Shown here one piece after another: positions 10,875 through 29,402 of a stretch of 64,000 bases of DNA; the stretch's first letter is position 1, and the number at the start of each line of letters is the position of its first letter. The notes under the pieces are model-generated. The model was not told where the DNA came from. It was given only the letters and a program-made list of their open reading frames with translations, and did no database searches. The stretch is from NCBI GenBank assembly GCA_945877575.1, contig CAMDUE010000002.1, positions 197,861-261,860 on the forward strand, given 5' to 3'. The stretch comes from Chitinophaga pinensis (GTDB lineage: Bacteria > Bacteroidota > Bacteroidia > NS11-12g > UBA955). Made by a program: the position numbers and the translations under genes.

Positions 10875-11824
10875 TCAGTCAAGTTATTTTAGTTGTATTA
10901 TCAATTTTATTGTTTGAGATTTACTTTAAAATAGCAAATCATTATAACATAATTGACAAACCCAACCAACGAAGCAGTCATACCGTTCTGACCATTCGTG
11001 GTGCAGGATTGGTTTTTCCCTTCATCATTTTTGCTACTTTGTTTTTTAATATTTTTACGAAAAATGACGGCTTAAATCTAATAAAGGAACCCATTCAGTT
11101 TTGGATTGCTTTGCTGGTTTTATCGGCAATTAGTTTTTATGATGATGTAAAATCACTCTCCCCAAAATTTAGAATTTTGATTCAAATTATTACCATTGCT
11201 TCGGTAGTGTTTTCATCAAATACTGTTATTTGGCAATCGCTATTGGCGCTAATATTGATCATTGGAGTGATTAATGCATACAATTTCATGGACGGCATCA
11301 ATGGCATTACCGCCCTTTATTCTTTGGTGGCTGTAATAACGGCCTTGGTAATGTTAGAGCTTGATTATCAATTAGTAATTGGATCAGAAATTTGGTGGGC
11401 TTTGGGAGCGGCACTAGTTGTCTTCTCCTTTTACAATGTTCGAAAACGCGCGAGATGTTTCTCGGGTGATGTTGGGGCGGTGAGTGTGGCTTTTGTTTTG
11501 TCTTACTGGATTTATGGGTTGGTCATAGCAAATGACAATTTAATTTATGTTTTATTCCTAGGTGTCTATGGTTTGGATTCGGTTGCGACTATAGCATTGC
11601 GTTTATATAGAAAGGAAAACATTTTAGAAGCTCATAGAAGTCATTTGTATCAATTACTGGCCAACGAAAAAGGGTGGTCGCATGTTAAAGTTTCGTCCAT
11701 TTATGCATTGACTCAAGCTGTTATAAATGGTTTGATTTTATACAATTCATTTCTAGCAGTAGTATTTTTTGTCCTTTTATCTGTTGGTTATATCTTATTA
11801 AGATTCAAATGGGCTGAGCAATGA
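10871..11824 (+). CDS. Polyprenol-phosphate N-acetylhexosamine-1-phosphate transferase (GT4 MraY/WecA/WbpL family)
   Basis: DDVKSLSPKFR...NAYNFMDGINGI motifs of the MraY-like family. Polytopic membrane protein. Confidence 0.75.
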   Translation: MISQVILVVLSILLFEIYFKIANHYNIIDKPNQRSSHTVLTIRGAGLVFPFIIFATLFFNIFTKNDGLNLIKEPIQFWIALLVLSAISFYDDVKSLSPKFRILIQIITIASVVFSSNTVIWQSLLALILIIGVINAYNFMDGINGITALYSLVAVITALVMLELDYQLVIGSEIWWALGAALVVFSFYNVRKRARCFSGDVGAVSVAFVLSYWIYGLVIANDNLIYVLFLGVYGLDSVATIALRLYRKENILEAHRSHLYQLLANEKGWSHVKVSSIYALTQAVINGLILYNSFLAVVFFVLLSVGYILLRFKWAEQ

Positions 11825-12690
11825 TAGCATTAACTGGATATAGCGGTTTTCTCGGTCAACACCTTAAAGATTTGGGTAATGGTGCCATTAAGATTGGTCG
11901 TTCTGCAGATGCGGATTGGAAATTCGATCTTGCCTCAGATCTCAATCAAATCCCAAGAAAAAAAGTGACAGACCCGGAAATAGAGTTATTCATTCATGCT
12001 GCGGGGTTGGCACATACGGTTCCTAAAACGGATGAAGAGAAGCAGCGGTTTTTTGAAGTCAATACGAGGGGAACAGAGCGATTGATGGAGGCGCTGAAGG
12101 AGGCGGAGTGGAAGCCAAAGAAGTTTTTATTTATCTCAACCATTGCTGTATATGGGGAGCCATTTGATGAGGATCGTTGTGTGCCGCCTTATCCTTCGGA
12201 AAAAGAGGCGCAAGAGCTTGAATTGTCCCCATATGGCAGGAGCAAATGGGAGGCCGAGCGAATTGTGCAGCGATATTGTGAAAAATGGAATTGCGTGTGC
12301 ATCGTTTGGCGGTTGCCGTTGATTGTGGGTGAGAATGCGCCAGGAAATTTGGGTGCCATGGAAAAGGCCATCCGGAAGGGGTATTATTTCAGAATTGGCA
12401 ACAGTTATGAACGTTTCCGATACTACGTGAATATTGAAGAGCTCGGTCGAAAGGTTCTGGATTTGCTTCAGGAACCATCGGCGGGCCTTGCTGGTTCAAA
12501 GACTTTGAATGTGTTTTCAGGAAGGAAATCCTACGGTGAATTCGAAGATGAAATTGCCGCCACGTACGGACGGAAAATCAAGTCCCTTCCGTTGTGGTTG
12601 GTGCGAATGATTGCGAAAGTTGGAGATTGGATTCCTGGGTTTCCGTTGAATAGTTACAGATTGGACAAATTAGTTAATTCTTCATCTTAA
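11821..12690 (+). CDS. NAD-dependent epimerase/dehydratase family protein (possible WbpV-like 4-reductase)
   Basis: N-terminal Rossmann motif MIALTGYSGFLGQHL. Short-chain SDR-like, 289 aa. Confidence 0.55.
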   Translation: MIALTGYSGFLGQHLKDLGNGAIKIGRSADADWKFDLASDLNQIPRKKVTDPEIELFIHAAGLAHTVPKTDEEKQRFFEVNTRGTERLMEALKEAEWKPKKFLFISTIAVYGEPFDEDRCVPPYPSEKEAQELELSPYGRSKWEAERIVQRYCEKWNCVCIVWRLPLIVGENAPGNLGAMEKAIRKGYYFRIGNSYERFRYYVNIEELGRKVLDLLQEPSAGLAGSKTLNVFSGRKSYGEFEDEIAATYGRKIKSLPLWLVRMIAKVGDWIPGFPLNSYRLDKLVNSSS

Positions 12691-14557
12691 AACTAGATTG
12701 AACCCTTTGGTTGACTTCTTCTTTGGTCTGTTTTAAAACAAAAAGAGAACCCCATACTTCTACTGAGCTGAGTTTGGCAATTAATTTAGGGTCGCATTCA
12801 GTATACATTTGTTGCAGACTCTCTTGGTTCATACCACATGCTTTTTGCCAAAATCCATTTTTGAAAAAGTTTAAATCCACTTTTAGTTCCGCATTGGCGT
12901 GTCCTTGAACGCCAAATCCAAATTTCTTCTTCTTAACTAATTCTTGGGGTAGTAATTGTTCTCCAAAATTACGAACTACTGCCTTATCCATTTTGAATGG
13001 ATGTTTCCAATTGTAAAATGAAGAAGTTTTTCCAATTTTAAATTTAGAAGGTAAATTCAAACCGAACTTCATGACCTCTTCATCTAAAAAGGGGAATCTT
13101 GATTCGATGGAATGCATCATTCCCATCCGGTCGTTGCGCCATAACAGAGAGTGAAGATGTCTGTGAATCATATTGACTGAAAGTTTAGAACAGCGCAATT
13201 CTTCGTCGTTATTTTTCAAAAAATGGTACGCCTTCATTACTTCATTGTCATTGCTTCTTTCTTTATATCCGTTTAAGTGACTTTGCAGTATTTCTTTTTG
13301 CATATCTACGGAATTTATTTTTAGGTAACTTTTCAATCCTGGCACTTTCTTATAAATACCGTTGATTATATCGTACGGCAATTGAATCAGGTTGTCCCAC
13401 CTTTGCGTGAGTAGTTTTGGATATCCTAAAAACAACTCATCTGATCCTTCACCCGTTAAAACTGCCTTCACGTTTTTTTGTCGAGCTAAATCAGCAACCC
13501 CTGAAAACGCCACCGAATTTGTAAAAAGAACGATGGGCGCTTCATAATGCCAAGTACAATCTACTATGTCTTTAATGAAATAATCTGGTAGATACTTGTA
13601 TTCATTAAGGTTCGTTTTCAATGATTTGGACAAGTAACGTGCATCTTTAATTTCGGAGAATTTACCTTCCACGTTCGCAGTAAAAAGTTGTAAATCCCCA
13701 TAATTTTTTGAAGTGGCAGCTACCACCGAAGAGTCAATACCTCCGCTAACAAAAGTTCCCATGGGGGCATCTGAGACAGACATGGAGGATACTGAATTGT
13801 TAAATAAGGCACTGAATTCTTCTGTGATTGCTTGTGAAGTTTTATTGTTTCGAAGATTAAAATCTTTTTCATCAACCCAATCTTCGAGTCCAAACCATTT
13901 AATGATATTATAGTCTAGATTTTGGGTATTTAATTTTAACAAATAACCTGGTTCCAGTTGATGAATTTGTTTGAAAGGCGAAATGTGGCGTTGGGTTTCG
14001 TATATCCCGTAATATGCTTGTGCCAAATAATGCATATTTACGTCATCCAAATTCAAATCTTTACATAGGGATTTGATTTCTGAGGAAAAATAGAAATCGC
14101 CTTGAATCATCCCATAAAATAAAGGCTTAATTCCAACTCTGTCCCGCACTAAAATCAAAGTATGTTCGCTCTTGTCAAACCATGAAAAAGCAAACATTCC
14201 TTTTAAATTTGCTAGTGTTTTCTCAACACCCCATTTTTTCAATCCGAAAAATAAAACTTCCGTATCTGAAGAAGTTTTAAAGTTTACCCCTTCGTTTTTC
14301 AGTTTTTCTTTCAGGTTTTTCCAGTTGTAAATTTCACCATTGAAAACCAAGACAAAACGATCATCGTAAAATGGTTGGTTTGAATTTTCTGTTAAGTCGA
14401 GGAGAGACAGTCGGTTGTGCCCAAATCCTATATTTTCATGTATAAATGTTCCTTTTGAATCGGGTCCTCTATGATTAGTTATTGATAACTTAACGTTCAG
14501 TTCATCAATGGATACCGTTTTATTTTTAGATTTAATAATCCCTAAAATTCCGCACAT
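12674..14557 (-). CDS. asnB: Asparagine synthase (glutamine-hydrolysing) family amidotransferase (AsnB/WbpS-like)
   Basis: N-terminal MCGILGII catalytic Cys2. SGGIDSS PP-loop motif. 627 aa. Confidence 0.85.
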   Translation of the reverse strand: MCGILGIIKSKNKTVSIDELNVKLSITNHRGPDSKGTFIHENIGFGHNRLSLLDLTENSNQPFYDDRFVLVFNGEIYNWKNLKEKLKNEGVNFKTSSDTEVLFFGLKKWGVEKTLANLKGMFAFSWFDKSEHTLILVRDRVGIKPLFYGMIQGDFYFSSEIKSLCKDLNLDDVNMHYLAQAYYGIYETQRHISPFKQIHQLEPGYLLKLNTQNLDYNIIKWFGLEDWVDEKDFNLRNNKTSQAITEEFSALFNNSVSSMSVSDAPMGTFVSGGIDSSVVAATSKNYGDLQLFTANVEGKFSEIKDARYLSKSLKTNLNEYKYLPDYFIKDIVDCTWHYEAPIVLFTNSVAFSGVADLARQKNVKAVLTGEGSDELFLGYPKLLTQRWDNLIQLPYDIINGIYKKVPGLKSYLKINSVDMQKEILQSHLNGYKERSNDNEVMKAYHFLKNNDEELRCSKLSVNMIHRHLHSLLWRNDRMGMMHSIESRFPFLDEEVMKFGLNLPSKFKIGKTSSFYNWKHPFKMDKAVVRNFGEQLLPQELVKKKKFGFGVQGHANAELKVDLNFFKNGFWQKACGMNQESLQQMYTECDPKLIAKLSSVEVWGSLFVLKQTKEEVNQRVQSSFKMKN

Positions 14558-14949: not shown

Positions 14950-16218
14950 TCAATTCTTGAGGCAACTTATAGGTATTACCCAAATCCCATCGTTGCGCTG
15001 GTAGGCGAATTCGCCGCCGGTGATGATCATTAGAAAAGAGGGTTCCCCCATTTTTTCAGTGTTAATCTTGTCTCGAATCTTTAAAAGATTCTTGGCTGCC
15101 TCTTCTATTTGTTTTTGTCCGAGTTTTACTTCGGCTGCAGCCCATTTGCCATTTCTAAGGCGTATGATTAGGTCGGCTTCTAAGCCAGATTTATCTCTGT
15201 AATGGAGAACATCCCCATCGTTGGCTTGGGCATAGATTCGGATGTCTCTTGTGCAAAGCGATTCAAACAGGAATCCAAACAATTCAAAGTCGTTTAAAAT
15301 ACCGTTGGGATCCGTTCTGAGCGCAGCTACGGCAATTGACGGGTCAACAAAATGGCGTTTATCCGATGTTCGAATGGCTGTTTTTGATCTCAAAGAGGGT
15401 TGCCATGCGGGTAGATCTTCGGTAACAAAAATTCTATTTAGGGCCTCAAGGTAGAGGCTGATTGTTTTCTCCGAGTATTGGCTGTCTTTGGTTTCAAGGT
15501 CTTCCTTAATTGTTTGGTAATTGGTGATTGTGGAGGTATTTCGGGCTAGTGAACGCAACAACAATCGGACCCGCTCAGGATTTTTCGTGATTCCGTCAGC
15601 GGCTGAGATGTCTTGATTTATAATTGACTCTACATAATCAATGGGTGTCTTCAGGGCACTTTTTTTGTTCATGTTAAGACTTCCTGGCCATCCACCCCTG
15701 CAGATGCAAGTTGCAATTTGTTCAATGCTCAAATTAGACAATCCTTCAGGTTCAGAAACGGTATGATTAAAAAGGTCTCTCAACGATATTTGTCCAGTAG
15801 ATTCTTTCGATTCGTACAAACTCATGGGTCTCATTCGGATTCTTGCGAATCTTCCTGTCCCAGTATGGGCGGTTTGATTGTCTGAGGGAGTGGTTGAGCC
15901 GGTGAGCAAGAACTGACCGGGTAAATTTCTTTTATCGATTTCATGCCTTACGGCATCCCACAGAACGGGTGCCATTTGCCATTCATCAATCAATCTTGGG
16001 GTGTCACCTTTGAGTAGGAGTGAAGGTTTTGTATCTGCGAGTGCCAAATATCCGGGCGCATTATCTGGGTCTTGAAGGTAAATAACGCTCTTTGCGGCTT
16101 GTTTTGCGCTGCTTGTTTTTCCACACCACTTAGGCCCTTCAATCAATACAGCACCTGCCCTATTGAGTGCTTCGTGAATTTCTAAATCAGATATACGTTC
16201 TAAATAATTGTTATTCAT
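14950..16218 (-). CDS. AAA family ATPase with DUF4143 domain
   Basis: Walker A GPKWCGKTS. C-terminal DUF4143-like region. GC-rich relative to its neighbours. Confidence 0.65.
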   Translation of the reverse strand: MNNNYLERISDLEIHEALNRAGAVLIEGPKWCGKTSSAKQAAKSVIYLQDPDNAPGYLALADTKPSLLLKGDTPRLIDEWQMAPVLWDAVRHEIDKRNLPGQFLLTGSTTPSDNQTAHTGTGRFARIRMRPMSLYESKESTGQISLRDLFNHTVSEPEGLSNLSIEQIATCICRGGWPGSLNMNKKSALKTPIDYVESIINQDISAADGITKNPERVRLLLRSLARNTSTITNYQTIKEDLETKDSQYSEKTISLYLEALNRIFVTEDLPAWQPSLRSKTAIRTSDKRHFVDPSIAVAALRTDPNGILNDFELFGFLFESLCTRDIRIYAQANDGDVLHYRDKSGLEADLIIRLRNGKWAAAEVKLGQKQIEEAAKNLLKIRDKINTEKMGEPSFLMIITGGEFAYQRNDGIWVIPISCLKN

Positions 16219-16259: not shown

Positions 16260-16386
16260 CCGAGTTTGGCGCCGTTTTACTTCCGAGTTTGGCACTGTTT
16301 TACTTCCGAGTTTGGCGTTTTTTTAAAATACCCCCTACCAACTACCAGGTACCATCTACCAGGTACTAGGTACCAGGTACCAGGTA
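16260..16386. repeat. 23-bp direct repeats (CCGAGTTTGGCRCYGTTTTACTT, about 2.6 copies) followed by a TACCAGGTA / CTACC hexamer array
   Basis: Directly visible in the divergent intergenic region. The array is the reverse-strand version of the GGTAGN family found elsewhere in the window. Confidence 0.8.
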
Positions 16387-16480: not shown

Positions 16481-18397
16481 ATGGAGCGACAACTACAGCA
16501 TTTGTTTTTGAAAATTTTAGGGAAAAAGTACCTTCCGGTGTGGGTGATATTGGGCATCGATCTGGTACTTGTGGGTGTGGCCTACGTGTTTTCGCTGTTG
16601 TTGTTGAGCAATTTCAATCTTGATAAAATTTATAATGTAGAGCATCTTCGGGCGTGGGCCTTTTTGGAGCTCTCGTTTGCGGTGTCGTTTGTGGTGTTTA
16701 GGTCGTATGAAGGGGCTTTCCGACATACGGGTGTGAGGGATTTGATGCGTCTGGCGGTGGCCAGCGTGACCGCGTTATCGGCGACCTTCTTTTTGAGTCG
16801 GTCGGCGCATCAGTTTTTGCCGGTCGATTTATCGAAACTGTCTATTGCGTTTTTGATTTTGCACGGATTCGCATTTTTGATGGGGGTTTTGGGATTGAGG
16901 TTGTTCGTTAAGTTGAGTTACAGCCGCTTCGTGTTGAAGTCGGATGCTAAGAAAGATAAGGGTTTGATCATTTATGGTGCTGGTGTTACGGGCATCAGCG
17001 TGCGGAACGCCATCAAGCAAGATCCCAATGCAACTGCAGATGTGGTGGGTTTTGTGGATGATAATCCGAGCGTGGTGGGCAAGCGAATCGATGGCATCAA
17101 GGTGTATTCGGCTGATGAAGTTTTCGAAAAAGACTTCCTCGAGAAAAATAAGGTGACGGGAGTGGTTTGGTCGGTGCAATCGGTATCGAACAACAGTTTT
17201 CATAGGGTCGGTGAGTTGTGTTTGCAGTTCAATTTGAATTTCCAGCGGGTGCCGAACGTCAATGAATGGATTGGCGGGGATTTGAGTGCGAAACAGTTGC
17301 GCACGGTAAAAATCGAAGATTTGCTGAACAGGCACCCCATATCCCTCGATAATAAAAACATCAAGAGTTTCATCAGAGGAAAACGGGTGTTGGTGACGGG
17401 TGCGGCAGGATCTATTGGATCAGAGATTTGCCGACAGGTAATTCATTATGGGCCGGAGTGTTTGGTGATGTTAGACAACGCCGAAACGCCCATGAACGAC
17501 TTGATTTTGGAGTTGGTGAAGAACTATGGAGAATCGAAAATTCTACATCCAATTTTGGGGGATGTGACCCGCGAAAACCGAATTGAGGAAGTATTTGCCA
17601 AGCACCAACCGGAGATTGTGTTCCACGCGGCGGCCTACAAACATGTCCCGTTGATGGAAAACAATGCCAAGGAGGCGGTGAGGGTGAATGTGCGCGGAAC
17701 TCAGGTTCTGGCGGAAGCGAGCGTGCGTCATGGAGTGAAGAAGTTTGTAATGATTTCGACGGATAAAGCGGTGAATCCCACGAATGTGATGGGAGCGACG
17801 AAGCGCACGGCGGAAATCTTGGTTCAGGATATGAATCGAAAGGCAGAGACGGAGTTCATCACCACGCGTTTTGGTAATGTGTTGGGATCGAATGGGTCTG
17901 TAATTCCGTTGTTCCGCAAGCAGATTGAGGCGAGGCAGGATGTTACGGTGACCCACCGAGATATTGTTCGTTATTTCATGACCATTCCGGAGGCAGTTCA
18001 ATTGGTTTTGGAAGCGGGCACCATGGGTAATGGAGGTGAGATATTTGTCTTTGATATGGGTGAACCCGTTCGCATTTACGACCTCGCTGAGAAGATGATT
18101 AAGTTGAGCGGTTTCGAGCCCGGCAAAGATATCCGCATTATAGAAACGGGTTTACGTCCTGGAGAAAAACTCTACGAAGAGCTGTTAAGCTCCGCGGAGA
18201 GCACAGTCCCCACGCATCACCCTAAGATATTGATTGCCAAAGTCAGAGAATACGAATCGGGCGCATTAACCGGCAAATTTGAATCCTTGACGTACGCTTC
18301 TTTAAACGGCGCCACTGACTGGGAGTTGGTTAAGTTGCTGAAAGAATTGGTTCCCGAGTATATCAGTCAGAATTCGGAGTTTGAAAGGTTAGATTGA
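16481..18397 (+). CDS. Polysaccharide biosynthesis protein CapD/WbpM (membrane-anchored UDP-GlcNAc 4,6-dehydratase)
   Basis: N-terminal TM helices followed by two Rossmann domains: VLVTGAAGSIGSEI and YGAGVTGIS. 638 aa. Confidence 0.85.
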   Translation: MERQLQHLFLKILGKKYLPVWVILGIDLVLVGVAYVFSLLLLSNFNLDKIYNVEHLRAWAFLELSFAVSFVVFRSYEGAFRHTGVRDLMRLAVASVTALSATFFLSRSAHQFLPVDLSKLSIAFLILHGFAFLMGVLGLRLFVKLSYSRFVLKSDAKKDKGLIIYGAGVTGISVRNAIKQDPNATADVVGFVDDNPSVVGKRIDGIKVYSADEVFEKDFLEKNKVTGVVWSVQSVSNNSFHRVGELCLQFNLNFQRVPNVNEWIGGDLSAKQLRTVKIEDLLNRHPISLDNKNIKSFIRGKRVLVTGAAGSIGSEICRQVIHYGPECLVMLDNAETPMNDLILELVKNYGESKILHPILGDVTRENRIEEVFAKHQPEIVFHAAAYKHVPLMENNAKEAVRVNVRGTQVLAEASVRHGVKKFVMISTDKAVNPTNVMGATKRTAEILVQDMNRKAETEFITTRFGNVLGSNGSVIPLFRKQIEARQDVTVTHRDIVRYFMTIPEAVQLVLEAGTMGNGGEIFVFDMGEPVRIYDLAEKMIKLSGFEPGKDIRIIETGLRPGEKLYEELLSSAESTVPTHHPKILIAKVREYESGALTGKFESLTYASLNGATDWELVKLLKELVPEYISQNSEFERLD

Positions 18398-18421
18398 ACG
18401 ATTATTTAGAGTCACTTACAA

Positions 18422-19810
18422 ATGCATATTATTTATTATTATATCAGATCAAACAAGTACTATATAATTTATTTTTTAATCAGAGTCATATCAATTTTTT
18501 TTCTTTTTAATTTAGCTCCTGATATTTCTCGACAGCTGAATGTTACAATGGTTCTTAAGAATCACGGAGCATATGGTTTAAAAATGTTAAACATTATTAC
18601 AAAAACATATGAAATTTCGCCATATTATTCTCACCCCCCATTTTTATCTTTAATAATTTATTTAATCGATTTTTTATTTAATAATATTATCTATTCTACG
18701 GTTTTTTTGGGAATAATATTGGCTGCAATAGAAACACAAATGGTCGGAAAAATTTTAAAGAAATTCGTATATGTTGATAATCAATTTATAATAGTGTTTT
18801 TATTATGCTCACTTTATATAGGTCATATTGACAGGGGTACTATATCTGATTATTTTTCAATTGTTCTTGGATTGTTTCTTTTCTGGCAAATATTGAAATT
18901 GATTGACAAAGAAACCATAAATTTTTTAAATACAGTTATTGTAATACTATTAGTACCTTGTTCGAAATATAGTCTATTTCCGGTTGTAATTTCATTTACT
19001 TTAATATATTTTTTTATAAAAATCCGACGCAAACAGTTATTCCAATTTGAAAGTTTTATTGTAGGATTATCATCTTTATTTTCACTGTTGATACTTATAT
19101 ACTTAAAAGCCAAAGGTGTCAATAATGTATTAAATGAAGATAACCAATTATTTCTGGATTTATACAACATCTCTAAAGTGGATTATTTTTGGTTTCATTT
19201 TGGTTTGGAAATTGATAGATTTTATAAACATTTAATGTGGTTTTCAGAAAAAAAATTAGATGTTAAAATATGGTACTGGTATTTTGGTCAAATTTTTGGT
19301 GTAATCACTGTTGCAATCGTTGTTTCGAAATCTAAAAAATTTATTTCTGAGAATAAGGTTCTTTTGTATAGTCTGATAGTTTTTTCTATTTTCCAATATA
19401 TCTTTTTATTTCTCCTTCAAATTACAACACCTCCCCAAGAAGGTGTTCATTATGGGGTTGATAATTTATGTTGGGTGTTTTCTGAAGAAGCTCGCTATTA
19501 TAACTATTTATCACTGCTTTGGTTTATTGTACTTGTTATAGGTTTACTTGGTTTTAAAAATAATTTTTATCTAGGAATATTAGTTCTATTAATAACTTTT
19601 GGTTATGCTAAAACAACGTATGCAAGATCAAATGGATTTAGTGAAATTAAATTTATACGATTGAGTAAACAATTTAATTATGCAAATAATATTTTAAATC
19701 CTACAAAGAAAGGTTGTTCAGCTTCTGAAGTTAATTGGCCCGATAAAATAGATAAGGAAATTCTATTAATATTTGGTGTAAAAAAAGTTAACATTAAAGT
19801 TAATCATTAG
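18422..19810 (+). CDS. Polytopic membrane protein of unknown function (possible GtrC/ArnT/Wzy-like)
   Basis: Very AT-rich ORF with more than 10 predicted hydrophobic helices. Start codon uncertain. Confidence 0.4.
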   Translation: MHIIYYYIRSNKYYIIYFLIRVISIFFLFNLAPDISRQLNVTMVLKNHGAYGLKMLNIITKTYEISPYYSHPPFLSLIIYLIDFLFNNIIYSTVFLGIILAAIETQMVGKILKKFVYVDNQFIIVFLLCSLYIGHIDRGTISDYFSIVLGLFLFWQILKLIDKETINFLNTVIVILLVPCSKYSLFPVVISFTLIYFFIKIRRKQLFQFESFIVGLSSLFSLLILIYLKAKGVNNVLNEDNQLFLDLYNISKVDYFWFHFGLEIDRFYKHLMWFSEKKLDVKIWYWYFGQIFGVITVAIVVSKSKKFISENKVLLYSLIVFSIFQYIFLFLLQITTPPQEGVHYGVDNLCWVFSEEARYYNYLSLLWFIVLVIGLLGFKNNFYLGILVLLITFGYAKTTYARSNGFSEIKFIRLSKQFNYANNILNPTKKGCSASEVNWPDKIDKEILLIFGVKKVNIKVNH

Positions 19811-19872
19811 TGATTTAGCGGTTTAACATCCAAACCTTTAAAAACAAATACTTTTATTAAAGATCATACATT

Positions 19873-20703
19873 ATGTCAAAAGATTTCCTGTTTAGCATTG
19901 ATCTTGAAGATCCAAGAGAAAATATTTGGAATAAGGACAGATACGAGGATCGTGTCAATCTAAATGTAATGAAATTATTGGATTGGTTAGAGAATAATAA
20001 TTCGAAGACTACTTTTTTCGTTGTTGGTAAAATAGCAGAGAGATATCCTGATTTAGTAAAACAAATATTTATAAAAGGACATGAAATAGCTTGCCATTCA
20101 TATTCTCATATTCCAATAAACCATTTAGGTAAAAAAGAATTCGAAAATGATCTTGTGCGCAATATTGAAGCAATAATAAATTGTGGTGTACCGAGTCCCA
20201 TAGGGTTTCGGGCTCCCACATTTTCCTTGATTGAAAGTTCATTCTGGGCATATAATATTCTCCGAAATAATGGTATTAAATATTCTAGTTCTGTACTACC
20301 AGCTAAAAATCCACTTTTTGGAATACCAAATTTCGGGCAACAACCTAAATATATTGATGGAATATTGGAAATTCCTGTCACTATTAGTAATTTCCTCTTC
20401 TATAAACTTCCAATTGCTGGTGGTATTTATTTACGGATTTTGCCCAAGCATATTATTTTGGCTAAAGCGCGTAATTTTCTTAGTACAAATTACCCATTAG
20501 TAAGTTATATACATCCTTACGATATAGACGTTAATCAAAATTATTTTATGCATGAACATATCAATAATCACATTTTAAATTATTTAATGTACTTTAACCG
20601 AAAAAATACTTTATTGAGGTTGGACTCATTTATTGATTTGGATTATAATATAATAACATATGAGAGATTCTTCAGAGATCATTTATCAAAGAATATCAGC
20701 TGA
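19873..20703 (+). CDS. Polysaccharide deacetylase family protein (NodB-like / DUF3473-like)
   Basis: N-terminal FSIDLEDP motif. FVVGKIAERYPDLVKQIFIKGHEIACHSYSH. Confidence 0.6.
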   Translation: MSKDFLFSIDLEDPRENIWNKDRYEDRVNLNVMKLLDWLENNNSKTTFFVVGKIAERYPDLVKQIFIKGHEIACHSYSHIPINHLGKKEFENDLVRNIEAIINCGVPSPIGFRAPTFSLIESSFWAYNILRNNGIKYSSSVLPAKNPLFGIPNFGQQPKYIDGILEIPVTISNFLFYKLPIAGGIYLRILPKHIILAKARNFLSTNYPLVSYIHPYDIDVNQNYFMHEHINNHILNYLMYFNRKNTLLRLDSFIDLDYNIITYERFFRDHLSKNIS

Positions 20704-21487
20704 TTCTAAATTTATCAAAAGGCAACTTGAACTTTTGAATTTAGTATTTGGAAAGAATTCTTTTTCAAGTAATTTTTTAAATTGGTTGTATCATGAGAAT
20801 CCAAATGGTAACATATTTGGTTTTGATGCATATTATAGAGAGAAATTAGTAGGTCATTATGCTACAATTCCTGTCTATTATTTTTATGGGAATAGAACTA
20901 TAAAAGGTCTTTTATCTCTAAATACTGCAACTCATCCAGATTTTCAAGGAATGGGTATTTTTACTAGATTGGCGAAATTTACTTACGACGTAGCCCAAAA
21001 AGAAGGTTATAATTTTGTGATAGGCGTATCAAATAAGAATAGTACATATGCTTTTATTAATAAACTTGATTTTAAATTAGTGAAGCCACTTGATGTGTAT
21101 ATTAATTTTTTTACGCGTTCACATAATACAAAAGTCAAAATTAATTTTGGAGGACAAAGAAATTTTGAATTTACTAAATGGAGACTATCAAATCCCAAAA
21201 GCAGTTATTTCGATTGTAAGGATATGGTGGTAAGCAAAAAGTATTTTGGATTATTAACAATACAAGTTTCCAAAAATTCAAGGGTAATTGAGCTGGACAA
21301 ATGTAATTGTATTATACTGCTTAGTGTAGGTATCAATAATCATCCAAAATCATTATTTTCGTTTAAATTACCTGAGTTTTTAAAACCTTCTCCTTTAAAT
21401 TTAATAATTCGCTCCCTTTCTACTGATTTTGCAATTCCAAACCATAATGAAATTTTATTTGAAAATTTTGATTTTGATGCTTTTTAG
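20660..21487 (+). CDS. GNAT-fold acyltransferase (FemAB-like?)
   Basis: GNAT motif A FQGMGIFTRLAKF. Confidence 0.45.
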   Translation: MRDSSEIIYQRISADSKFIKRQLELLNLVFGKNSFSSNFLNWLYHENPNGNIFGFDAYYREKLVGHYATIPVYYFYGNRTIKGLLSLNTATHPDFQGMGIFTRLAKFTYDVAQKEGYNFVIGVSNKNSTYAFINKLDFKLVKPLDVYINFFTRSHNTKVKINFGGQRNFEFTKWRLSNPKSSYFDCKDMVVSKKYFGLLTIQVSKNSRVIELDKCNCIILLSVGINNHPKSLFSFKLPEFLKPSPLNLIIRSLSTDFAIPNHNEILFENFDFDAF

Positions 21488-21564
21488 ATTCTGATAAGAC
21501 ATTTGTTTCGAGCGCAATTTTTTAGGTTAGAGAATTACAAAGTATGTTTCCATATTTGATAATA

Positions 21565-21599
21565 TTTGTTAAGTACTGCAAGAGATTATTGTATTTTTG
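21565..21599 (+). promoter_or_regulatory. Candidate Bacteroidetes sigma-A promoter (TTTG ... TATTTTTG)
   Basis: TAnnTTTG-type -7 element TATTTTTG at 21592-21599, about 27 bp upstream of the ATG. An upstream TTTG is present, but the spacer is slightly long. Confidence 0.25.
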
Positions 21600-21625
21600 A
21601 TATTTTACACCACTAAATTATAAAC

Positions 21626-22516
21626 ATGCAAAGCGTATCTATAATTGTTCCTTGTTATAATGAACAAGATAATTTGCCAAAGTTGATTGATAAAATCGCT
21701 AAATTCATTTCAGATAACAAAGATTACTATGTTATTTTTGTTAACGATGGTAGTAAAGATAATACATTGGAATGCTTGAAAAACAGTATTAACGAAAAGT
21801 TTGTAATAGTTTCGCATTCGAGAAACAGAGAATATGGTGCGGCTATAAAAAGTGGAATATTATCTGCAGAAACTGATTTTTGTATTACAATTGACGGTGA
21901 TGGTCAACATGATTTGCAAGACATACCAAAAATGTTAAATCAATTATTGGAATCAAAATCCGACATGATTGTTGGTAATCGAAATGGGAAGGGTTCTAGT
22001 AGTTTTAGGAATCTTGGAAAATGGATGATCCGTAAGTTTATTACAACCATGACAGATTTGTCAATTGAAGATGTTAATAGTGGAATGAAGTTATATAGAA
22101 CGGAAGTTGTAAAGTCACTGATAAAGTGGGCACCTAGTGATATGTCCTTTTCAGAAACAATAGTAATTTTACACAACCATTTTCGATATAAGATTTCAGA
22201 ATTGGAAATTAATATTTTCAATAGGGAAGCTGGGAAGAGTACAATAAACATTAATACAGCAATTAAAGCAGTAAAGGAAATTGTTTTTTTGCTAATTAAT
22301 TTCTTTCCATTTCGTTTCTTCTCGTTAATAGGAACTATTTTTTTCATATTTGGCCTGTTCTGGAGTTTGCCATTTTTAATAAACGGTGAAGGATTGACCA
22401 TTGGTTCAGGTTTTATATTCTCGAGTTGTGTATTAATCTTTTTATTAGGAATAATATTGCAAACTTTGACTCGTATGAAGTTTGAAGATTATTTACATGT
22501 TAATAGTAAGGTATAA
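21626..22516 (+). CDS. Polyprenyl-phosphate glycosyltransferase, GT2 (GtrB/ArnC/DPM1-like)
   Basis: VSIIVPCYNEQDNLPKL...FVNDGSKDNT...DGDGQHD. Two C-terminal TM helices as in GtrB/ArnC. Confidence 0.75.
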   Translation: MQSVSIIVPCYNEQDNLPKLIDKIAKFISDNKDYYVIFVNDGSKDNTLECLKNSINEKFVIVSHSRNREYGAAIKSGILSAETDFCITIDGDGQHDLQDIPKMLNQLLESKSDMIVGNRNGKGSSSFRNLGKWMIRKFITTMTDLSIEDVNSGMKLYRTEVVKSLIKWAPSDMSFSETIVILHNHFRYKISELEINIFNREAGKSTININTAIKAVKEIVFLLINFFPFRFFSLIGTIFFIFGLFWSLPFLINGEGLTIGSGFIFSSCVLIFLLGIILQTLTRMKFEDYLHVNSKV

Positions 22517-22599
22517 TACTATTGTGTAATTTATGATAAATTCATTCATAATTTATTAAAAGGTTTATTTTTAATTCAAATGAAATCTGATAACCTATT

Positions 22600-23961
22600 A
22601 TGAATCACAGGTGCTTACATATTCTCAATCGTTTTGGATTTGGCACTAGCATTCAATTTTTGCTGAATTATGAATTATCTGATTTACTGATTGATGAAAA
22701 TAAAATGAAATTTTGGTTGATTAATGAAGTTCCGGAATTTGTAGAAATAGAGAAAGTCAACAAAGAATTTTCAACTGAAGCAAAAATAGGCTCAAATGAA
22801 AAATGGAGAAAAAGATGGCCTGATGCAGCTGTGAGAACCGATTGGATTCAATTCATGGTTGAATTAGAAAATCCTCTTAGAGAAAAAGCTGCGCTATTTT
22901 GGAATCATGTAGTACCGATTTCAGTGGGGATTTGGGGTTTTGCACAGAATTTATTGATAGATTCATACCGAAAGAATGCTTTTTCAGATTACAATGTGTT
23001 ACTGAAGGATGTTTTAGCCTCACCTTGCGCGATGAAGTTTCTAAATGCCTATCATTCCAAAAAAGATAATCCCAATCAGAACATGCCCCGTGAATTGCTT
23101 GAACTGTTTACGGTAGGTATTGATAATTACGGTCAGAATGATGTTTTGGAAATTTCGAGAGCTTTTGCTGGCAGAAGAACAGTAAATCCGGATAATTTTA
23201 AAGTCCCTTATCCTTATCAACTGTATATTGATGAAAATAATTCAGACAGGGGGGAGAAGACTATTCTAGGTCAAACTGGAAATTGGGATGGAAATGACGC
23301 AATCGACATTCTCGTAAATTCAAAACATACTCATGAGAGAGTTGCTCATTTATTTATGAGGTTCTTTGTTTCAGACAAACCAAAAGATGAGCATGTTGAT
23401 GAATTGGCAGCATTTACATTTTCTAAAAATAGAATTAATTTTATTGATTTGGTTCAATACACAATCAATTCAGAATGGTTCTTTCGAGATGAATATATTG
23501 GAAATAAAGTAAAAACACCCGTGGAACATTGGGTTGGATTTCAAAAAAAGATGGGATTAAAAGTTTTAACCAGCGAATTACATTCAAATGTATTAAGACA
23601 GTTTGGTCAGGATGTATTTTTCCCCATAAATGTTGGTGGATGGCCTTGGGGTGAAGGTTGGTTAAATGGAAATTTACTCATAAACAGAGTGTTTTTACCC
23701 AAAGCAATTTTAGAAATCGCCCAAGAAAATCAACAGGAAATAGAAATGTCTTTCTCTGAAAAGGTAACATACAGAACATTCAAAAAACACCTATTGGGAA
23801 TGCGATTTGAGAGTGCTGTGTTATTGAATATCAGAGAAGTTATAAATATTCTCAAAGAAAATAATGTTAAGTTGTCCAGTTGGGTCTTGTCTAGAAACAC
23901 AAGTTTAAAAAACGACGAAATTAGTTATTTAATTACTCATCAATTATTTCAATATCATTGA
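22600..23961 (+). CDS. DUF1800 family protein
   Basis: HILNRFGFGTS and ELFTVGIDNY...ARAFAGRR motifs characteristic of DUF1800. Paired with the downstream DUF1501 gene. Confidence 0.6.
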   Translation: MNHRCLHILNRFGFGTSIQFLLNYELSDLLIDENKMKFWLINEVPEFVEIEKVNKEFSTEAKIGSNEKWRKRWPDAAVRTDWIQFMVELENPLREKAALFWNHVVPISVGIWGFAQNLLIDSYRKNAFSDYNVLLKDVLASPCAMKFLNAYHSKKDNPNQNMPRELLELFTVGIDNYGQNDVLEISRAFAGRRTVNPDNFKVPYPYQLYIDENNSDRGEKTILGQTGNWDGNDAIDILVNSKHTHERVAHLFMRFFVSDKPKDEHVDELAAFTFSKNRINFIDLVQYTINSEWFFRDEYIGNKVKTPVEHWVGFQKKMGLKVLTSELHSNVLRQFGQDVFFPINVGGWPWGEGWLNGNLLINRVFLPKAILEIAQENQQEIEMSFSEKVTYRTFKKHLLGMRFESAVLLNIREVINILKENNVKLSSWVLSRNTSLKNDEISYLITHQLFQYH

Positions 23962-25076
23962 AAAGAAGTGCATTCATAAAGATAGTTGGGAGTGGCGTTG
24001 TTGCAGGGTCAATCGGTTCAATGTTTGAATCCTGCTCTGTAAATCAGACCAAGAAATATTCTGATGATGTATTGGTAGTAGTGAGAGTGAAAGGTGGAAT
24101 GGATGGATATCATTTGATTTCTCCTAAGGAGAATGATTTGCTCCTAAAATTACGGCCCAATATTCAAAAGTCTATTGAACAAAAAGGAATAAATTACCGG
24201 AATAATTGGTTTATAAATCCAAATTTTGCTGTAATAGCAGATCTAAATGAGAAGGGTTGGCTTCAAATCATCCCAAATGTTGGATATTCTGATTATAATA
24301 GATTGTCTCATTTTAAAGCACAAGATTATTGGGAAACAGGAAGTGTTGTAGGTGATAAAGTTCAACATAGGACGGGGTGGGCTGGAAGGTTAGTTGATAA
24401 CAATATTATTCAAGTTAATGGGAACAAATCACCTATTTTAATAATTGACAATGAGCAAACATTGTTTGATAAAGGAGAAAATAGTTCAGGAGTGTATTAC
24501 ACCCCATTTAATACCTATTCTAATTTATTTCCCTTAGTTGAGGATTGGATTAATGAGAATAAAAATAGCTTAGAGAATAAGCAGATTTATCAGAGAGTCG
24601 AAGAGCAATATAGAATAAATCAATTATTAAAAGAAACAAGTCCAAATTCTGTGTCGTCCAAGGATATGAAGGGAAAGTTGGATCAGATTGCTGATTGCAT
24701 TGAGAAGGAATTGCCGTTTAGGGTATACAATTTAACTCAAAGTGGATATGATACTCATCACAAACAGACAATTAGATTAGAGCCATTAGCCTTAGACTTA
24801 TTCAATGGATTAAATCAATTTGCCGAGCGTCTTCAACAGGGAAATAATTGGGGGAGAGTAAAGGTATTGGTATACACTGAATTTGGAAGGACAATTGCTG
24901 AAAACAGTAATGGCGGAACAGATCACGGAACGGCAAATCATACATATTTATTAGGTGGTAATCTTGGAGATAAATGGTTAAATCCTTCTTTTGAATTTAA
25001 TACAATGAAAATTGCGGGTAATGATTATTTGACAATCAATGAGGATTTTAGAGAAATATACAAGAGTTTAATTTGA
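23958..25076 (+). CDS. DUF1501 family protein (sulfatase-like, Tat-signal-like N-terminus)
   Basis: NGGTDHGTANHTYLLGGNLG motif. N-terminal MKRSAFIKIVGSGVVAG. Confidence 0.6.
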   Translation: MKRSAFIKIVGSGVVAGSIGSMFESCSVNQTKKYSDDVLVVVRVKGGMDGYHLISPKENDLLLKLRPNIQKSIEQKGINYRNNWFINPNFAVIADLNEKGWLQIIPNVGYSDYNRLSHFKAQDYWETGSVVGDKVQHRTGWAGRLVDNNIIQVNGNKSPILIIDNEQTLFDKGENSSGVYYTPFNTYSNLFPLVEDWINENKNSLENKQIYQRVEEQYRINQLLKETSPNSVSSKDMKGKLDQIADCIEKELPFRVYNLTQSGYDTHHKQTIRLEPLALDLFNGLNQFAERLQQGNNWGRVKVLVYTEFGRTIAENSNGGTDHGTANHTYLLGGNLGDKWLNPSFEFNTMKIAGNDYLTINEDFREIYKSLI

Positions 25077-25081
25077 TTTAG

Positions 25082-26116
25082 TTATTCCATTCTCTCCCAA
25101 GTGCTTTTTAGAACTTTTGTTTTGAGGCCGTGTTTTTCGGCGAGGTAGCGCGCGAAGACGGCAGAGTAGCCGTGGGTGACGGAAATGGTGTGGGCTTCGG
25201 TGGCGAGGCAGGCGGTTTCGAGTTCTTGGAAGTCGGCGTGGTCGCTGAGAACGAATCCGCGGTCAAAGTTTCCCCAACGGCGGGAACCGCGAAGGGCCAT
25301 CCAGCCGGAGCAGGAAATTGTTAGGTGACGAGGGTCTTGTGGCGAGGGACTGGTGTCTATATTTTGGGTGTTAGGGGTCGGGTGTCGGGATTCGGAGGGG
25401 GTCGGGTTACGGGAGTCGGTGGGGTTGCTGGAGATGAGGATGTGCTTGGAGGTGGGGCGTTGGTTTTTGGTGGTAGGGTAAATGGGGGGAAGGAAGATAT
25501 TGAAGCCGTCACGGTTGAGGGCTTGGGTTGTGTCGGCGATGGTTTTGGTGACGTAGAGGGGGAGGTCTTGGAGGTGATGGATGAGACGCTGGGCTTTTCC
25601 GAGGGAGTAGGCTGAGATGATGAGGTTTTCATCGTTGTTGTGGAAGTATTCGCGGATGTCGTTGAAGATATCGGCTTGGGGTGTCCATCGAAAAACGGGG
25701 AGTCCGAAGGTGCTTTCGGTGATAAAGTGGTGGCATTTCACGGGTTCGAATGGGGTGGAGATGCCGTCATTGTTGAGTTTATAGTCCCCCGAAACGACCC
25801 AAATTTCGCCTTGATGTTCTAGTCGGATTTGCGCGGAACCGGGTATGTGTCCGGCGGGATGAAAGGAAATGTTGACGCCGTTGATGCTGATGGTTTGGCT
25901 GAAGGGAAGGGTTTGGAGGGAGATGTGTTGACCGAGACGGAGTTTCAGGATGTGTTCGTTGCCCTGGGCGGCGAGGTAGTGTTTGTGGTTGGGTCGGGCG
26001 TGATCAGCGTGGGCGTGGGTGATGAGGGCTTTGTTGACGGGCTTGTGGGGATCTATGTAGACATCGGCGGCGGGGCAGTAGAGGCCGGATGGGGTGGAGG
26101 TTAGTAGTTGGTACAT
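25082..26116 (-). CDS. Ligase-associated DNA damage response exonuclease (MBL-fold)
   Basis: GLYCPAADVYIDPHKPVNKALITHAHADHA N-terminus and HxHxDH metallo-beta-lactamase motif. An ATP-dependent DNA ligase gene lies nearby. Contains an in-frame low-complexity insert. Confidence 0.7.
   Translation of the reverse strand: MYQLLTSTPSGLYCPAADVYIDPHKPVNKALITHAHADHARPNHKHYLAAQGNEHILKLRLGQHISLQTLPFSQTISINGVNISFHPAGHIPGSAQIRLEHQGEIWVVSGDYKLNNDGISTPFEPVKCHHFITESTFGLPVFRWTPQADIFNDIREYFHNNDENLIISAYSLGKAQRLIHHLQDLPLYVTKTIADTTQALNRDGFNIFLPPIYPTTKNQRPTSKHILISSNPTDSRNPTPSESRHPTPNTQNIDTSPSPQDPRHLTISCSGWMALRGSRRWGNFDRGFVLSDHADFQELETACLATEAHTISVTHGYSAVFARYLAEKHGLKTKVLKSTWERME
25325..25480. repeat. G-rich heptamer array (GGGTGTC/GGGATTC/GGGTTAC ...) embedded in-frame in the exonuclease CDS
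   Basis: Seen directly. Encodes TDSRNPTPSESRHPTPNTQ... on the minus strand. Confidence 0.7.
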
Positions 26117-26160
26117 GGTAGATGGTACATGGTAGATGGTAGATGGTACATGGTAGGGGG
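26101..26160. repeat. GGTACATGGTAGATGG hexamer array at the exonuclease start
   Basis: ggtacatggtagatggtacatggtagatggtagatggtacatggtagggggtagggg. Confidence 0.8.
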
Positions 26161-26171
26161 TAGGGGATATT

Positions 26172-26210
26172 AAAAAAACCCCGAGGTGTTGCCCCGGGGT
26201 TTTTTGTTTT
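26172..26210. terminator. Bidirectional intrinsic terminator hairpin
   Basis: A7-CCCCGAGG-tgttg-CCCCGGGG-T6. The 8-bp stem has one mismatch. The element lies just downstream of the S46 peptidase stop on the minus strand. Confidence 0.6.
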
Positions 26211-28413: not shown

Positions 28414-28560
<147 letters not shown>

Positions 28561-28642
28561 CGGATAGTGTGGGGAAGTGGTTTTATGTTTGCGGTTTGAA
28601 GGCATGGGATATTTGTACGGATAAAATACGTACATTTGTTGA

Positions 28643-28933
28643 ATGGAAAATAAGATGGAACGAATTGAGTTGAGGGTGAGCAAGTCGGAAAAAATGATAT
28701 TACAGCGGGCGGCAGAAATATTGGGTTTCGGGTCATTGAGTGCCTTTTTATTATCGGAAGTTCGTCCTAAAGCAGAGGAGGTAGTGAAGAGAGAGAGTAC
28801 AATAAGATTAAATTTGGAAGACTCTTTCAAGATCATGGAGTATCTTGAAAGGGGGGAAGTGGAGAATGGTGCTTTGAAAAAGGCGAGGGAAATGTACGGT
28901 CAAGTGGTGAAAGATGAAGGAATTCCGATTTGA
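28643..28933 (+). CDS. DUF1778 family antitoxin (TacA-like, RHH)
   Basis: RIELRVSKSEKMILQRAAEILGFGSLSAFLLSE. 96 aa. Overlaps the downstream GNAT gene by 20 bp. Confidence 0.7.
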   Translation: MENKMERIELRVSKSEKMILQRAAEILGFGSLSAFLLSEVRPKAEEVVKRESTIRLNLEDSFKIMEYLERGEVENGALKKAREMYGQVVKDEGIPI

Positions 28934-29402
28934 GAAACTGGATGTAAAAAGGCACGACAGAAAATCATTTGTTTCTGGAAACGAAGAATTAGATCAGTTT
29001 TTTCAAACCCAGGCCAGACAGCAAATGGAGAAGCGTTTGAGTGTCTGCTTTGTCATGTTAAATGGCGGATCAAAAATTATTGGATTTTATACATTAAGTT
29101 CTGCAAGTGTAGAAGCAAATGAAAGTAGAATTTCGAGTTCAAAATATGTAAGCTTACCTGTGGTTTTGATTGGTAGACTGGCTGTACATTCTCAGTTTCA
29201 AAAGCAGGGTTTAAGTGGATTGATGTTGGTTAATATCATTGAAAGAGTTAGAAAATTATCGGAGAGTGAAATTGGGGTTAAGGGCATTTTCGTTGAGCCC
29301 AAATCCGAGGAAATCTCATTGTACTACCTTAAATATGGATTTTTGAAGCTGGAAAAAGGGGTGTTTTATCCTTTCGGTAAAAATTCAAGTAATTCTGGAT
29401 AA
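28914..29402 (+). CDS. GNAT family acetyltransferase toxin (TacT-like)
   Basis: 162 aa GNAT, translationally coupled to the DUF1778 gene. N-terminal KLDVKRHDRKSFVSGNEELDQFF is typical of TacT/KacT. Confidence 0.7.
   Translation: MKEFRFEKLDVKRHDRKSFVSGNEELDQFFQTQARQQMEKRLSVCFVMLNGGSKIIGFYTLSSASVEANESRISSSKYVSLPVVLIGRLAVHSQFQKQGLSGLMLVNIIERVRKLSESEIGVKGIFVEPKSEEISLYYLKYGFLKLEKGVFYPFGKNSSNSG

Follow-up and report, generated by a model that had tools for sequence, protein, structure and literature searches.

A recurrent deacetylase-acyltransferase gene set in an AT-rich block of a Bacteroidota genome may edit a carrier-linked amino sugar before its transfer to surface glycans

A 64,000-nucleotide (nt) stretch of contig CAMDUE010000002.1 (positions 197,861 to 261,860 of the forward strand; metagenomic Bacteroidota assembly GCA_945877575.1), hereafter the window, contains a cassette of four co-directional open reading frames (ORFs) that follow a wbpM gene and encode a polytopic membrane protein, a polysaccharide deacetylase, a tandem GNAT, and a GT2 glycosyltransferase (Table 1). 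We give an even chance of being correct to the reading in which this cassette forms a module that deacetylates and re-acylates a sugar on a lipid carrier and then transfers it, in the periplasm, to a surface glycan. The GT2 would load a sugar, presumably an N-acetyl-hexosamine (HexNAc), from a nucleotide sugar onto polyprenyl (undecaprenyl) phosphate at the cytoplasmic face of the membrane; the CE4/DUF3473 enzyme would strip the N-acetyl group from this putative lipid-linked substrate in the cytoplasm; and the tandem GNAT would re-acylate the freed amine with a non-acetyl acyl group, most likely drawn from an acyl-coenzyme A (acyl-CoA). A factor other than the known cassette genes would then flip the carrier-linked product across the membrane, and the GT-C-like membrane protein would pass the edited sugar from its presumed lipid-linked donor to a periplasmic acceptor, probably the glycan of the adjacent Wzy-type locus or lipopolysaccharide (LPS). 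Modification on the carrier, by re-acylation or aminoacylation, had been put forward in an original prediction made from the sequence alone; the core of that idea survives, with the gene set recurring across phyla, and its aminoacyl donor now appears less likely than acyl-CoA.

Membership of the GT2 in the polyprenyl-phosphate glycosyltransferase group is well supported by sequence comparison and agrees with its initial description as GtrB/ArnC-like. PF00535 is matched across residues 5-164 (2.8e-27), the translation shows the motifs NDGSKD (40-45) and DGD (90-92) of a GT-A domain with its DxD motif, and two transmembrane (TM) helices are found at the C-terminus (about residues 226-253 and 255-284). 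The nearest solved relatives by phmmer are ArnC (9hwj; 6.6e-26, residues 2-272), GtrB (sll0501, 5eke; residues 4-278), and DPMS. The top NCBIfam matches (ArnC, PgfS, PpgS, and AglJ) each fall under the respective equivalog cutoff; identity as an ArnC ortholog was considered and rejected, the score against the ArnC equivalog NF007986 (115.3 bits) being far below its cutoff of 529.

The deacetylase matches both PF01522 (Polysacc_deac_1; 1.3e-18) and PF11959 (DUF3473; 9.1e-19), consistent with the polysaccharide deacetylase call made for it at the outset. The CE4 motifs are invariant in all six orthologs compared (DLED at 10-13, H75 and H79, RAP at 113-115, and HPYD at 214-217); judged by these intact motifs the enzyme is predicted to be catalytically competent, with a carrier-linked sugar as its putative substrate. 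Its sequence has neither a TM segment nor a signal-peptide-like N-terminus, which suggests that the protein is probably cytoplasmic. Against TIGR03006, a family of the XrtA system, it scores 178.9 bits (1e-52), below the cutoff of 276.2, and no exosortase was found among the ORFs examined near it.

The match of the third protein to PF13527 (Acetyltransf_9) is weak, though above cutoff (29.0 bits against 25), and there is no NCBIfam match; the protein belongs to a family of at least 454 homologs in several phyla. Its AlphaFold2 (AF2) model, with a predicted local distance difference test score (pLDDT) of 92.4, is a tandem GNAT, for which the top Foldseek matches are Eis-like acetyltransferases (2hv2 and 3n7z) and N-myristoyltransferases, all of which use acyl-CoA; structures of these two kinds make up the top 50, with no FemX among them. 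A loop following strand 4, HPxxQG(K/M)G, is conserved and resembles a canonical CoA pyrophosphate loop. The first half of the "GNAT/FemAB-like" label in the original prediction is upheld by PF13527 and by the tandem-GNAT model; the second half is not, and the FemAB/TIGR03019 reading was rejected, given the lack of an NCBIfam match, the Foldseek results, and a survey in which none of 54 family members matched TIGR03019 at E<=1. Because the protein is Eis- and N-myristoyltransferase-like with a CoA-type loop, and not FemAB-like, acyl-CoA is favoured over aminoacyl-tRNA as the more likely donor. Acetyltransf_9/Eis-type GNATs are typically users of acetyl-CoA.

For the membrane protein, neither Pfam nor NCBIfam gives a match; searches of it and its seven closest homologs with PF13231 and the rest of Pfam returned nothing even at E<=10. 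It is also rare: 7 homologs were recovered among 5.8 billion proteins, a profile search yielded 37 representative clusters in 1.84 billion, and a metagenome scan with the same profile found three loci only, two of them near-identical. An identical protein is present on the 252-kb contig k141_1150525 of ENA ERZ27280281. For the AF2 model built from 25 sequences (pLDDT 88.5; predicted template-modeling score 0.90), all of the top ten Foldseek matches in the PDB are GT-C-fold proteins (EmbA/B/C, AftA, and PIGU), with ALG6, Pmt1/2, and AftD lower down. Profile-profile alignment with hhalign connects the family to distant relatives of 540 amino acids (aa) (99.96%, E 9e-39, 361 columns), two of ten of which match PMT_2 (PF13231; best 2.3e-8), an indirect link to that family. 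The topology predicted from the AF2 model and hydropathy comprises TM1 (12-28), a 60-aa loop (29-88), and TM2 (89-115). Residue D34, directly after TM1, is conserved in at least 90% of the 25 sequences; HPP at 71-73 in the loop is invariant across the eight closest sequences; and further conserved polar clusters (GH-DRG-SDY, K-D-FW-HFG-E-DR-YK, and EEARYYNY) fall in predicted periplasmic loops.

On this evidence, the membrane protein is very probably a GT-C-like transferase of an unclassified family; the GT-C/GT83 homology that the original prediction proposed to check is thereby upheld as a fold and a remote PMT_2 link, without a direct match to PF13231. A polyprenyl-phosphate sugar is its presumed donor, supported by the genomic pairing with the GT2. 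It is highly improbable, in our view, that the protein is instead a Wzy-like polymerase, a WaaL-like ligase, or a transporter or flippase for the modified lipid-linked sugar. What speaks for such a role is the lack of a Pfam or NCBIfam assignment, the absence of any other flippase candidate in the window, and the weakness of the Foldseek E-values (best 7e-3, with TM-scores of 0.44-0.47), which also counts against our own reading. However, every high-probability structural match is GT-C, no Wzy, WaaL, RodA, or MOP-flippase structure occurs among the 49 matches, and the profile link leads to PMT_2-matching proteins; moreover, the near-invariant Asp lies directly after TM1, as in GT-C enzymes, and the upstream glycan locus has a separate Wzy_C-type gene.

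The surroundings of the GNAT were compared in eight independent contexts, the window included (the others are designated here by L numbers), and in all eight the GNAT adjoins a deacetylase. This is a CE4/DUF3473 enzyme in six contexts (window, L082, L087/88, L089/90, L095, and L096) and a member of the unrelated PIG-L family in two (L085/86, Lysobacter enzymogenes, with the order PMT_2-GT2-GNAT-PIG-L around GLE_4236; L094, Phenylobacterium); the exchange of one deacetylase family for another argues that deacetylation followed by the GNAT step is the selected function. A GT2 and a polytopic protein of 450-700 aa with a TM1-long loop-TM2 arrangement occur within a few genes in all eight. The GT2s have a C-terminal TM hairpin or are TM-less with a DUF2304 partner, except that of L095, which has neither. 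The polytopic proteins match PMT_2 in L082 and L085 and are unannotated elsewhere; hhalign found no significant match between the window membrane family and those of L082, L087, L094, and L096, so that the transferases of the different contexts are not orthologous. In L082 and L096, the GT-C-like, GT2, DUF2304, deacetylase, and GNAT frames overlap or nearly abut outside any larger sugar-nucleotide or polysaccharide locus, so that a lipid-linked sugar would be the sole glycan intermediate made by the module itself. The GT2 of L096 forms the C-terminal part of a 694-aa fusion (3761-5845) whose N-terminal, approximately 8-TM polytopic domain weakly matches DUF6541; this fusion, which joins transferase to carrier-loading enzyme, is followed by DUF2304, the deacetylase, and the GNAT. 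A small ArnE/F-type protein resembling EamA/SMR is encoded in L094. The membrane protein gene adjoins a GT2 gene in the window, as do its homologs on the P0007 contig and in L092/93 (a high-GC organism; 25% identity), and in L090 the homolog directly follows the GNAT in the same cassette as the GT2 (hhalign 1.2e-72). CoA-transferase (PF01144) genes lie near the module in three of the eight contexts (L082, 1-1016; L096, 2390-3764; L085, 16291-16849), which may hint at an acyl-CoA donor or may reflect inherited synteny.

Whether the four genes serve one pathway must be weighed against an alternative that we regard as unlikely, if far from negligible, in which two separate functions are encoded next to each other. 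The pair of GT2 and membrane protein would carry out ordinary side-branch glycosylation of the Gtr/Arn type, and the deacetylase and GNAT would modify one of the sugars destined for the main glycan, either as a nucleotide sugar or within an undecaprenyl-diphosphate (Und-PP)-linked oligosaccharide. Editing of this kind has been proposed for VimE/VimA (the Wbp/Vim linking sugar), for HfsH/HfsK, and for the PEP-CTERM TIGR03006/TIGR03019 pair; TIGR03006 is the best NCBIfam match of the window deacetylase, and an AsnB-like amidotransferase resembling TIGR03108/WbpS lies nearby (Table 1; PMC7468200). However, the TIGR03006 match falls short of its cutoff, and the GNAT family is not that of TIGR03019/FemAB. 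In L095, the deacetylase-GNAT pair is surrounded by aminotransferase, dehydratase, and radical-SAM genes, and some relatives of the membrane protein are accompanied by a GT2 yet by neither deacetylase nor GNAT, which indicates that the two halves can act independently and weighs against a single pathway. The pairs in L082 and L096, by contrast, overlap or abut GT2-DUF2304 outside any polysaccharide locus, and a polyprenyl-phosphate-type GT2, or a PpgS-like GT2 with DUF2304, is found in most of the eight contexts.

The same survey bears on the role of the GNAT. It could be that a free-amine (cationic) hexosamine is delivered, as by LgmABC or FlmF2/NaxD/FlmK, and that the GNAT is a regulator, a salvage enzyme re-acetylating excess undecaprenyl-phosphate (Und-P)-linked hexosamine, or an acetyltransferase for something unrelated; we consider this quite improbable. 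The Eis-type affinity of the GNAT, whose relatives typically take acetyl-CoA, would be in keeping with it. So would the combination of GT2, deacetylase, and GT-C protein, which is the known logic of glucosamine (GlcN) or galactosamine (GalN) addition to lipid A (PMC4993483). Against this stands the linkage of GNAT to deacetylase in eight of eight contexts, spanning at least three phyla and both of the unrelated deacetylase families, together with the overlap of their reading frames (44 nt in the window and 4 nt in L089); so strict a linkage argues for the GNAT as an obligatory step on the deacetylase product.

Several further points weigh against carrier editing as proposed here. Instead of a carrier-linked monosaccharide, the deacetylase and GNAT might take a nucleotide sugar or an Und-PP-linked repeat unit as substrate, and an acetyl-CoA donor acting on the same amine would amount to a futile cycle, making the model incomplete. 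The GNAT loop (Q-G-M-G-I-F; Q-G-K-G-L-F in the family) agrees with Q/R-x-x-G-x-G/A in its first four positions but ends in Phe and not in Gly/Ala. A scan for free-standing ORFs of 60-200 aa with three or more hydrophobic segments found none closer than 23 kb to the cassette, and no GtrA, DUF2304, or ArnE/F-type flippase candidate was found in the cassette or among the window ORFs; the statement in the original prediction that no small GtrA-like flippase gene is seen thus agrees with the ORF scan, which returned just two small multi-TM ORFs, one in an alternative frame within the deacetylase gene and the other of 192 aa with 5 TM segments (Table 1). Assignments to families and folds, intact motifs, linkage of the genes, and accessory status are shown by the analysis; the chemistry of the scheme (sugar, substrate of the deacetylase and GNAT, acyl group and its donor, and acceptor) is inferred. 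Finally, horizontal acquisition of the cassette (see below) is judged from relatives just 54-65% identical in WbpM and not from sister strains.

More broadly, and with somewhat less confidence than an even chance, we suggest that a GT2, a de-N-acetylase (CE4/DUF3473 or PIG-L), a tandem GNAT, and a GT-C protein may constitute a widespread uncharacterised carrier-editing pathway in Bacteroidota, Gamma- and Alphaproteobacteria, and Acidobacteriota, in which the N-acetyl group is replaced and the sugar is then attached to envelope glycans. On this proposal, the GT-C family of the window would be one unrecognised by databases and may require the DUF1800/DUF1501 proteins encoded downstream.

Base composition sets the limits of the block in the window. 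The sharp fall in GC content noted after wbpM in the original prediction is confirmed, from 0.48 in wbpM to 0.25-0.30 across the four cassette genes, as is the corresponding fall in GC content at third codon positions (GC3), from 0.585 to 0.18-0.27. The predicted recovery after 22.6 kb was not found: GC of 0.30-0.34 and GC3 of 0.28 persist through the DUF1800 and DUF1501 genes, and GC climbs to 0.52-0.56 only at 25,080. The unit defined by composition thus comprises six genes (18422-25076), with GC3 of 0.18-0.28 between flanks of 0.585 (wbpM) and 0.684 (exonuclease); the four cassette genes are real and mostly as first described, within a block that is longer and ends at 25,076. The wbpM stop lies 24 nt before the block, and 5 nt separate the DUF1501 stop from the exonuclease stop (25082). 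Intergenic spacings in the cassette are 24, 62, 138, and 83 nt; the DUF1800 and DUF1501 genes overlap by 4 nt at the start of the latter. Scanning this AT-rich Bacteroidota region for sigma-70 promoters and terminators proved uninformative: terminator-like sites are rarer than in shuffled controls, and none lies within the cassette. The N-terminus of the DUF1501 protein (MKRSAFIK...SMFESC) resembles a Tat or lipoprotein export signal.

The only other cluster with homologs of all six genes is that of L089/L090, from one low-GC organism, with identities of 61% (GT2), 54% (deacetylase), 45% (GNAT), 34% (membrane protein), 33% (DUF1800), and 30% (DUF1501); the DUF1800/DUF1501 pair is at 783-3174 of L089. 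Given this co-occurrence, the pair appears to travel with the cassette, and it may be functionally linked to the glycan module.

The block is accessory and was most likely exchanged horizontally. The best genome matches of the window WbpM/CapD-type protein are in Bacteroidia metagenome-assembled genomes (65% and 61% identity). In the closest of these (L002, 65%), wbpM ends at 1792 and a convergent exonuclease homolog (47%) ends at 1860, leaving a spacing of 67 nt that is empty of the cassette; this direct abutment of the two flanking genes is what marks the block as accessory. In L032, an AAA_14/DUF4143 ATPase gene (74%) and wbpM are followed by a homolog (72%) of the window ORF at 30987, again without the cassette. 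The compositional contrast favours acquisition here over loss in the relatives, the two not being formally separable. The GC3 contrast and the cassette-free junction in L002 are both in line with the horizontal acquisition suggested in the original prediction, and together with the GT-C-type fold and PMT_2 link of the membrane protein they leave that prediction unrefuted. The upstream glycan locus is GC-poor as well (GC 0.31-0.36, GC3 0.23-0.33), so that low GC is not specific to the cassette; low GC is common in glycan loci.

A 7-nt unit (GGTAGNT / GGTACAT) is repeated in tandem at seven places along the window (Table 1), with 32 matches at <=2 mismatches against 2.2 expected. Arrays one and two lie on opposite strands and together make up a 67-nt inverted repeat with 81% complementarity (16320-16386 / 26112-26178) that encloses wbpM through the exonuclease gene. 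Its interpretation as the ends of a mobile element was rejected, as the repeat is the dispersed heptamer array. Directly before the first array, where the AAA_14/DUF4143 ATPase gene and wbpM diverge, their intergenic region holds three tandem copies of a 23-nt unit (CCGAGTTTGGCGCCGTTTTACTT).

Among known systems, the lipid A modification pathway for 4-amino-4-deoxy-L-arabinose, Arn (ArnC, ArnD, ArnE/F, and ArnT), resembles the proposed module in its order of steps: loading of undecaprenyl phosphate with an N-acylated amino sugar by a GT2, deacylation by a cytoplasmic CE4/NodB enzyme, and periplasmic transfer by a GT-C protein; ArnC is also the nearest solved relative of the window GT2. Arn has no re-acylation, whereas the module always has a GNAT. 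Further differences are the distance of the window GT2 from the ArnC equivalog (115 bits against the cutoff of 529), a transferase that is not ArnT/PF13231 by hidden Markov model, and the absence from the window of an ArnE/F-type flippase and of ArnA/ArnB-type sugar-nucleotide genes.

Bordetella LgmABC(D) adds GlcN to lipid A (PMC4993483). Lgm and the Francisella FlmF2/NaxD/FlmK system share with the module an Und-P-HexNAc synthase, a deacetylase, and GT-C transfer of hexosamine to an envelope glycolipid, but they deliver a free amine and have no GNAT. Their deacetylase is of the YdjC family, not CE4 or PIG-L; the lipid A GlcN/GalN logic is reportedly also described by Llewellyn et al. (2012). 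The mycobacterial and corynebacterial PpgS-Rv3632-Rv3779 pathway places GalN on arabinogalactan, and its deacetylase is still unidentified (PMC9671496). There, polyprenyl-P-GalNAc is the product of a GT2 working with a small DUF2304-type partner, and deacetylation and GT-C transfer follow; DUF2304 also belongs to the module as it occurs in L082 and L096, whereas the window GT2 has its own TM hairpin and no such partner. We know of no re-acylation in the PpgS pathway.

In Porphyromonas and Tannerella, the CE4 enzyme VimE removes a 2-N-acetyl group and GNAT-fold VimA adds Ser or Gly to the same amine (PMC7468200). Wbp/Vim and the window have in common a Bacteroidota host, a CE4 and GNAT-fold pair, and a nearby AsnB-like amidotransferase. 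They differ in that VimA matches TIGR03019 (FemAB-like) and the window GNAT family does not; in the Vim substrate, a Wbp-pathway diacetamido-uronic acid, for which pathway genes were sought in the window's portion of the upstream locus and not found; and in the lack of a polyprenyl-phosphate GT2 and GT-C pair in Wbp/Vim. Caulobacter HfsH/HfsK likewise comprises a CE4 deacetylase and a tandem-GNAT N-acyltransferase thought to re-acylate exposed amines (PMC5362036). Unlike the window GNAT, HfsK is FemX-like and regulated by c-di-GMP, and the substrate of HfsH/HfsK is the holdfast polymer or an Und-PP precursor of it, with no link to a polyprenyl-phosphate GT2/GT-C pair. GtrABC, the three-component system of O-antigen glucosylation, and Gram-positive CsbB/YfhO and GacI/GacL combine, as the module is proposed to do, a GT2 that makes a polyprenyl-P-sugar with a variable, acceptor-specific polytopic transferase acting outside the cytoplasm, and these systems are similarly accessory and horizontally exchanged; the window has no GtrA, and the sugar of the module would be deacetylated and acylated before transfer.

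To our knowledge, characterised systems deliver the sugar unchanged (Gtr, CsbB/YfhO, and GacI/L) or simply deacylated (Arn, Lgm, Flm, and PpgS), and literature searches for DUF3473 and for the combination of GT2, deacetylase, GNAT, and GT-C found nothing specific. What is new here is the combination of carrier-loading and deacetylate/re-acylate logics in one conserved module; also new are the association with DUF1800/DUF1501, a GT-C-like family without prior classification, and a GNAT family separate from that of FemAB/TIGR03019. Periplasmic decoration of LPS, capsules, and wall polymers by polyprenyl-phosphate sugars governs phage receptors, antimicrobial-peptide resistance, and immune recognition. 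If the proposal is true, an "edit on the carrier, then transfer" branch would be added to bacterial glycan decoration and its known chemistry widened; it would also supply candidate enzymes for the missing deacetylase step of analogous pathways, a new GT-C-like family, a testable context for DUF3473, and possibly the first functional context for DUF1800/DUF1501. Versions of the module in Lysobacter enzymogenes and Phenylobacterium, both cultured organisms, make the hypothesis directly testable.

Table 1. Coordinates of the six-gene block, its flanks, and other features of the window (position 1 is the first nucleotide of the window).
Feature	Coordinates	Strand	Match, composition, or proposed role
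GT-C-like membrane protein, 462 aa	18422..19810	+	Proposed periplasmic transferase
CE4 (NodB-type) + DUF3473 deacetylase, 276 aa	19873..20703	+	Proposed de-N-acetylase of carrier-linked HexNAc
Tandem-GNAT N-acyltransferase, 275 aa	20660..21487	+	Proposed to re-acylate the exposed amine
GT2 polyprenyl-phosphate glycosyltransferase (ArnC/GtrB/DPMS/PpgS type), 296 aa	21626..22516	+	
DUF1800 protein	22600..23961	+	PF08811 7.3e-62; GC3 0.28
DUF1501 protein	23958..25076	+	PF07394 3.6e-18; GC3 0.28
WbpM/CapD-type membrane 4,6-dehydratase, left flank	16481..18397	+	PF02719 4e-117; GC3 0.585
Ligase-associated DNA-damage-response exonuclease, right flank	25082..26116	-	TIGR04122 358.8 bits (cutoff 325); GC3 0.684
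Wzy-type glycan locus	188-11824		
Wzy_C-type gene of that locus	4848-6212		
Asparagine-synthase-type amidotransferase	12674-14557	-	TIGR03108 1e-80, below cutoff; GC3 0.34
AAA_14/DUF4143 ATPase	14950-16218	-	
23-nt tandem repeats, three copies	16260-16328		
Heptamer array	16329-16386		
Heptamer array	26103-26162		
Heptamer array	28469-28515		
Heptamer array	30568-30593		
Heptamer array	51637-51690		
Heptamer array	52420-52466		
Heptamer array	54310-54377		
TacA1-type antitoxin gene and overlapping 162-aa ORF	28600-29402		Probable TacAT-like pair
ATP-dependent DNA ligase	29385-30905	-	
Small 5-TM ORF, 192 aa	48754-49332		

The upstream locus comprises GT1/GT4 genes, a GT2, Wzy_C, Acyl_transf_3, and a WecA-like gene. 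Its description as an O-antigen locus holds as regards the WbpM/CapD gene and the Wzy-type gene content; the O-antigen label itself was assumed, the host being a member of the Bacteroidota. At the end of this locus, on the opposite strand, lies the asparagine-synthase-type amidotransferase gene; TIGR03108, its below-cutoff match, is the XrtA/PEP-CTERM amidotransferase family. WbpS, an enzyme of the same kind, amidates the uronic acid of the Porphyromonas linking sugar (PMC7468200). The AAA_14/DUF4143 ATPase gene adjoins wbpM both in the window and in L032 (4468-5727; 74% identity), a synteny conserved at the edge of the glycan locus.

Beyond the right flank, an S46 peptidase gene and a toxin-antitoxin pair lie between the exonuclease and DNA ligase genes. 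The latter pair, located between the peptidase and ligase genes, consists of a TacA1-type antitoxin gene and an overlapping 162-aa ORF (also in L001, 20234-20981) and is probably TacAT-like. The exonuclease itself contains a Pro/Ser/Thr-rich low-complexity insert that derives in part from a 24-nt tandem duplication (25374-25421).

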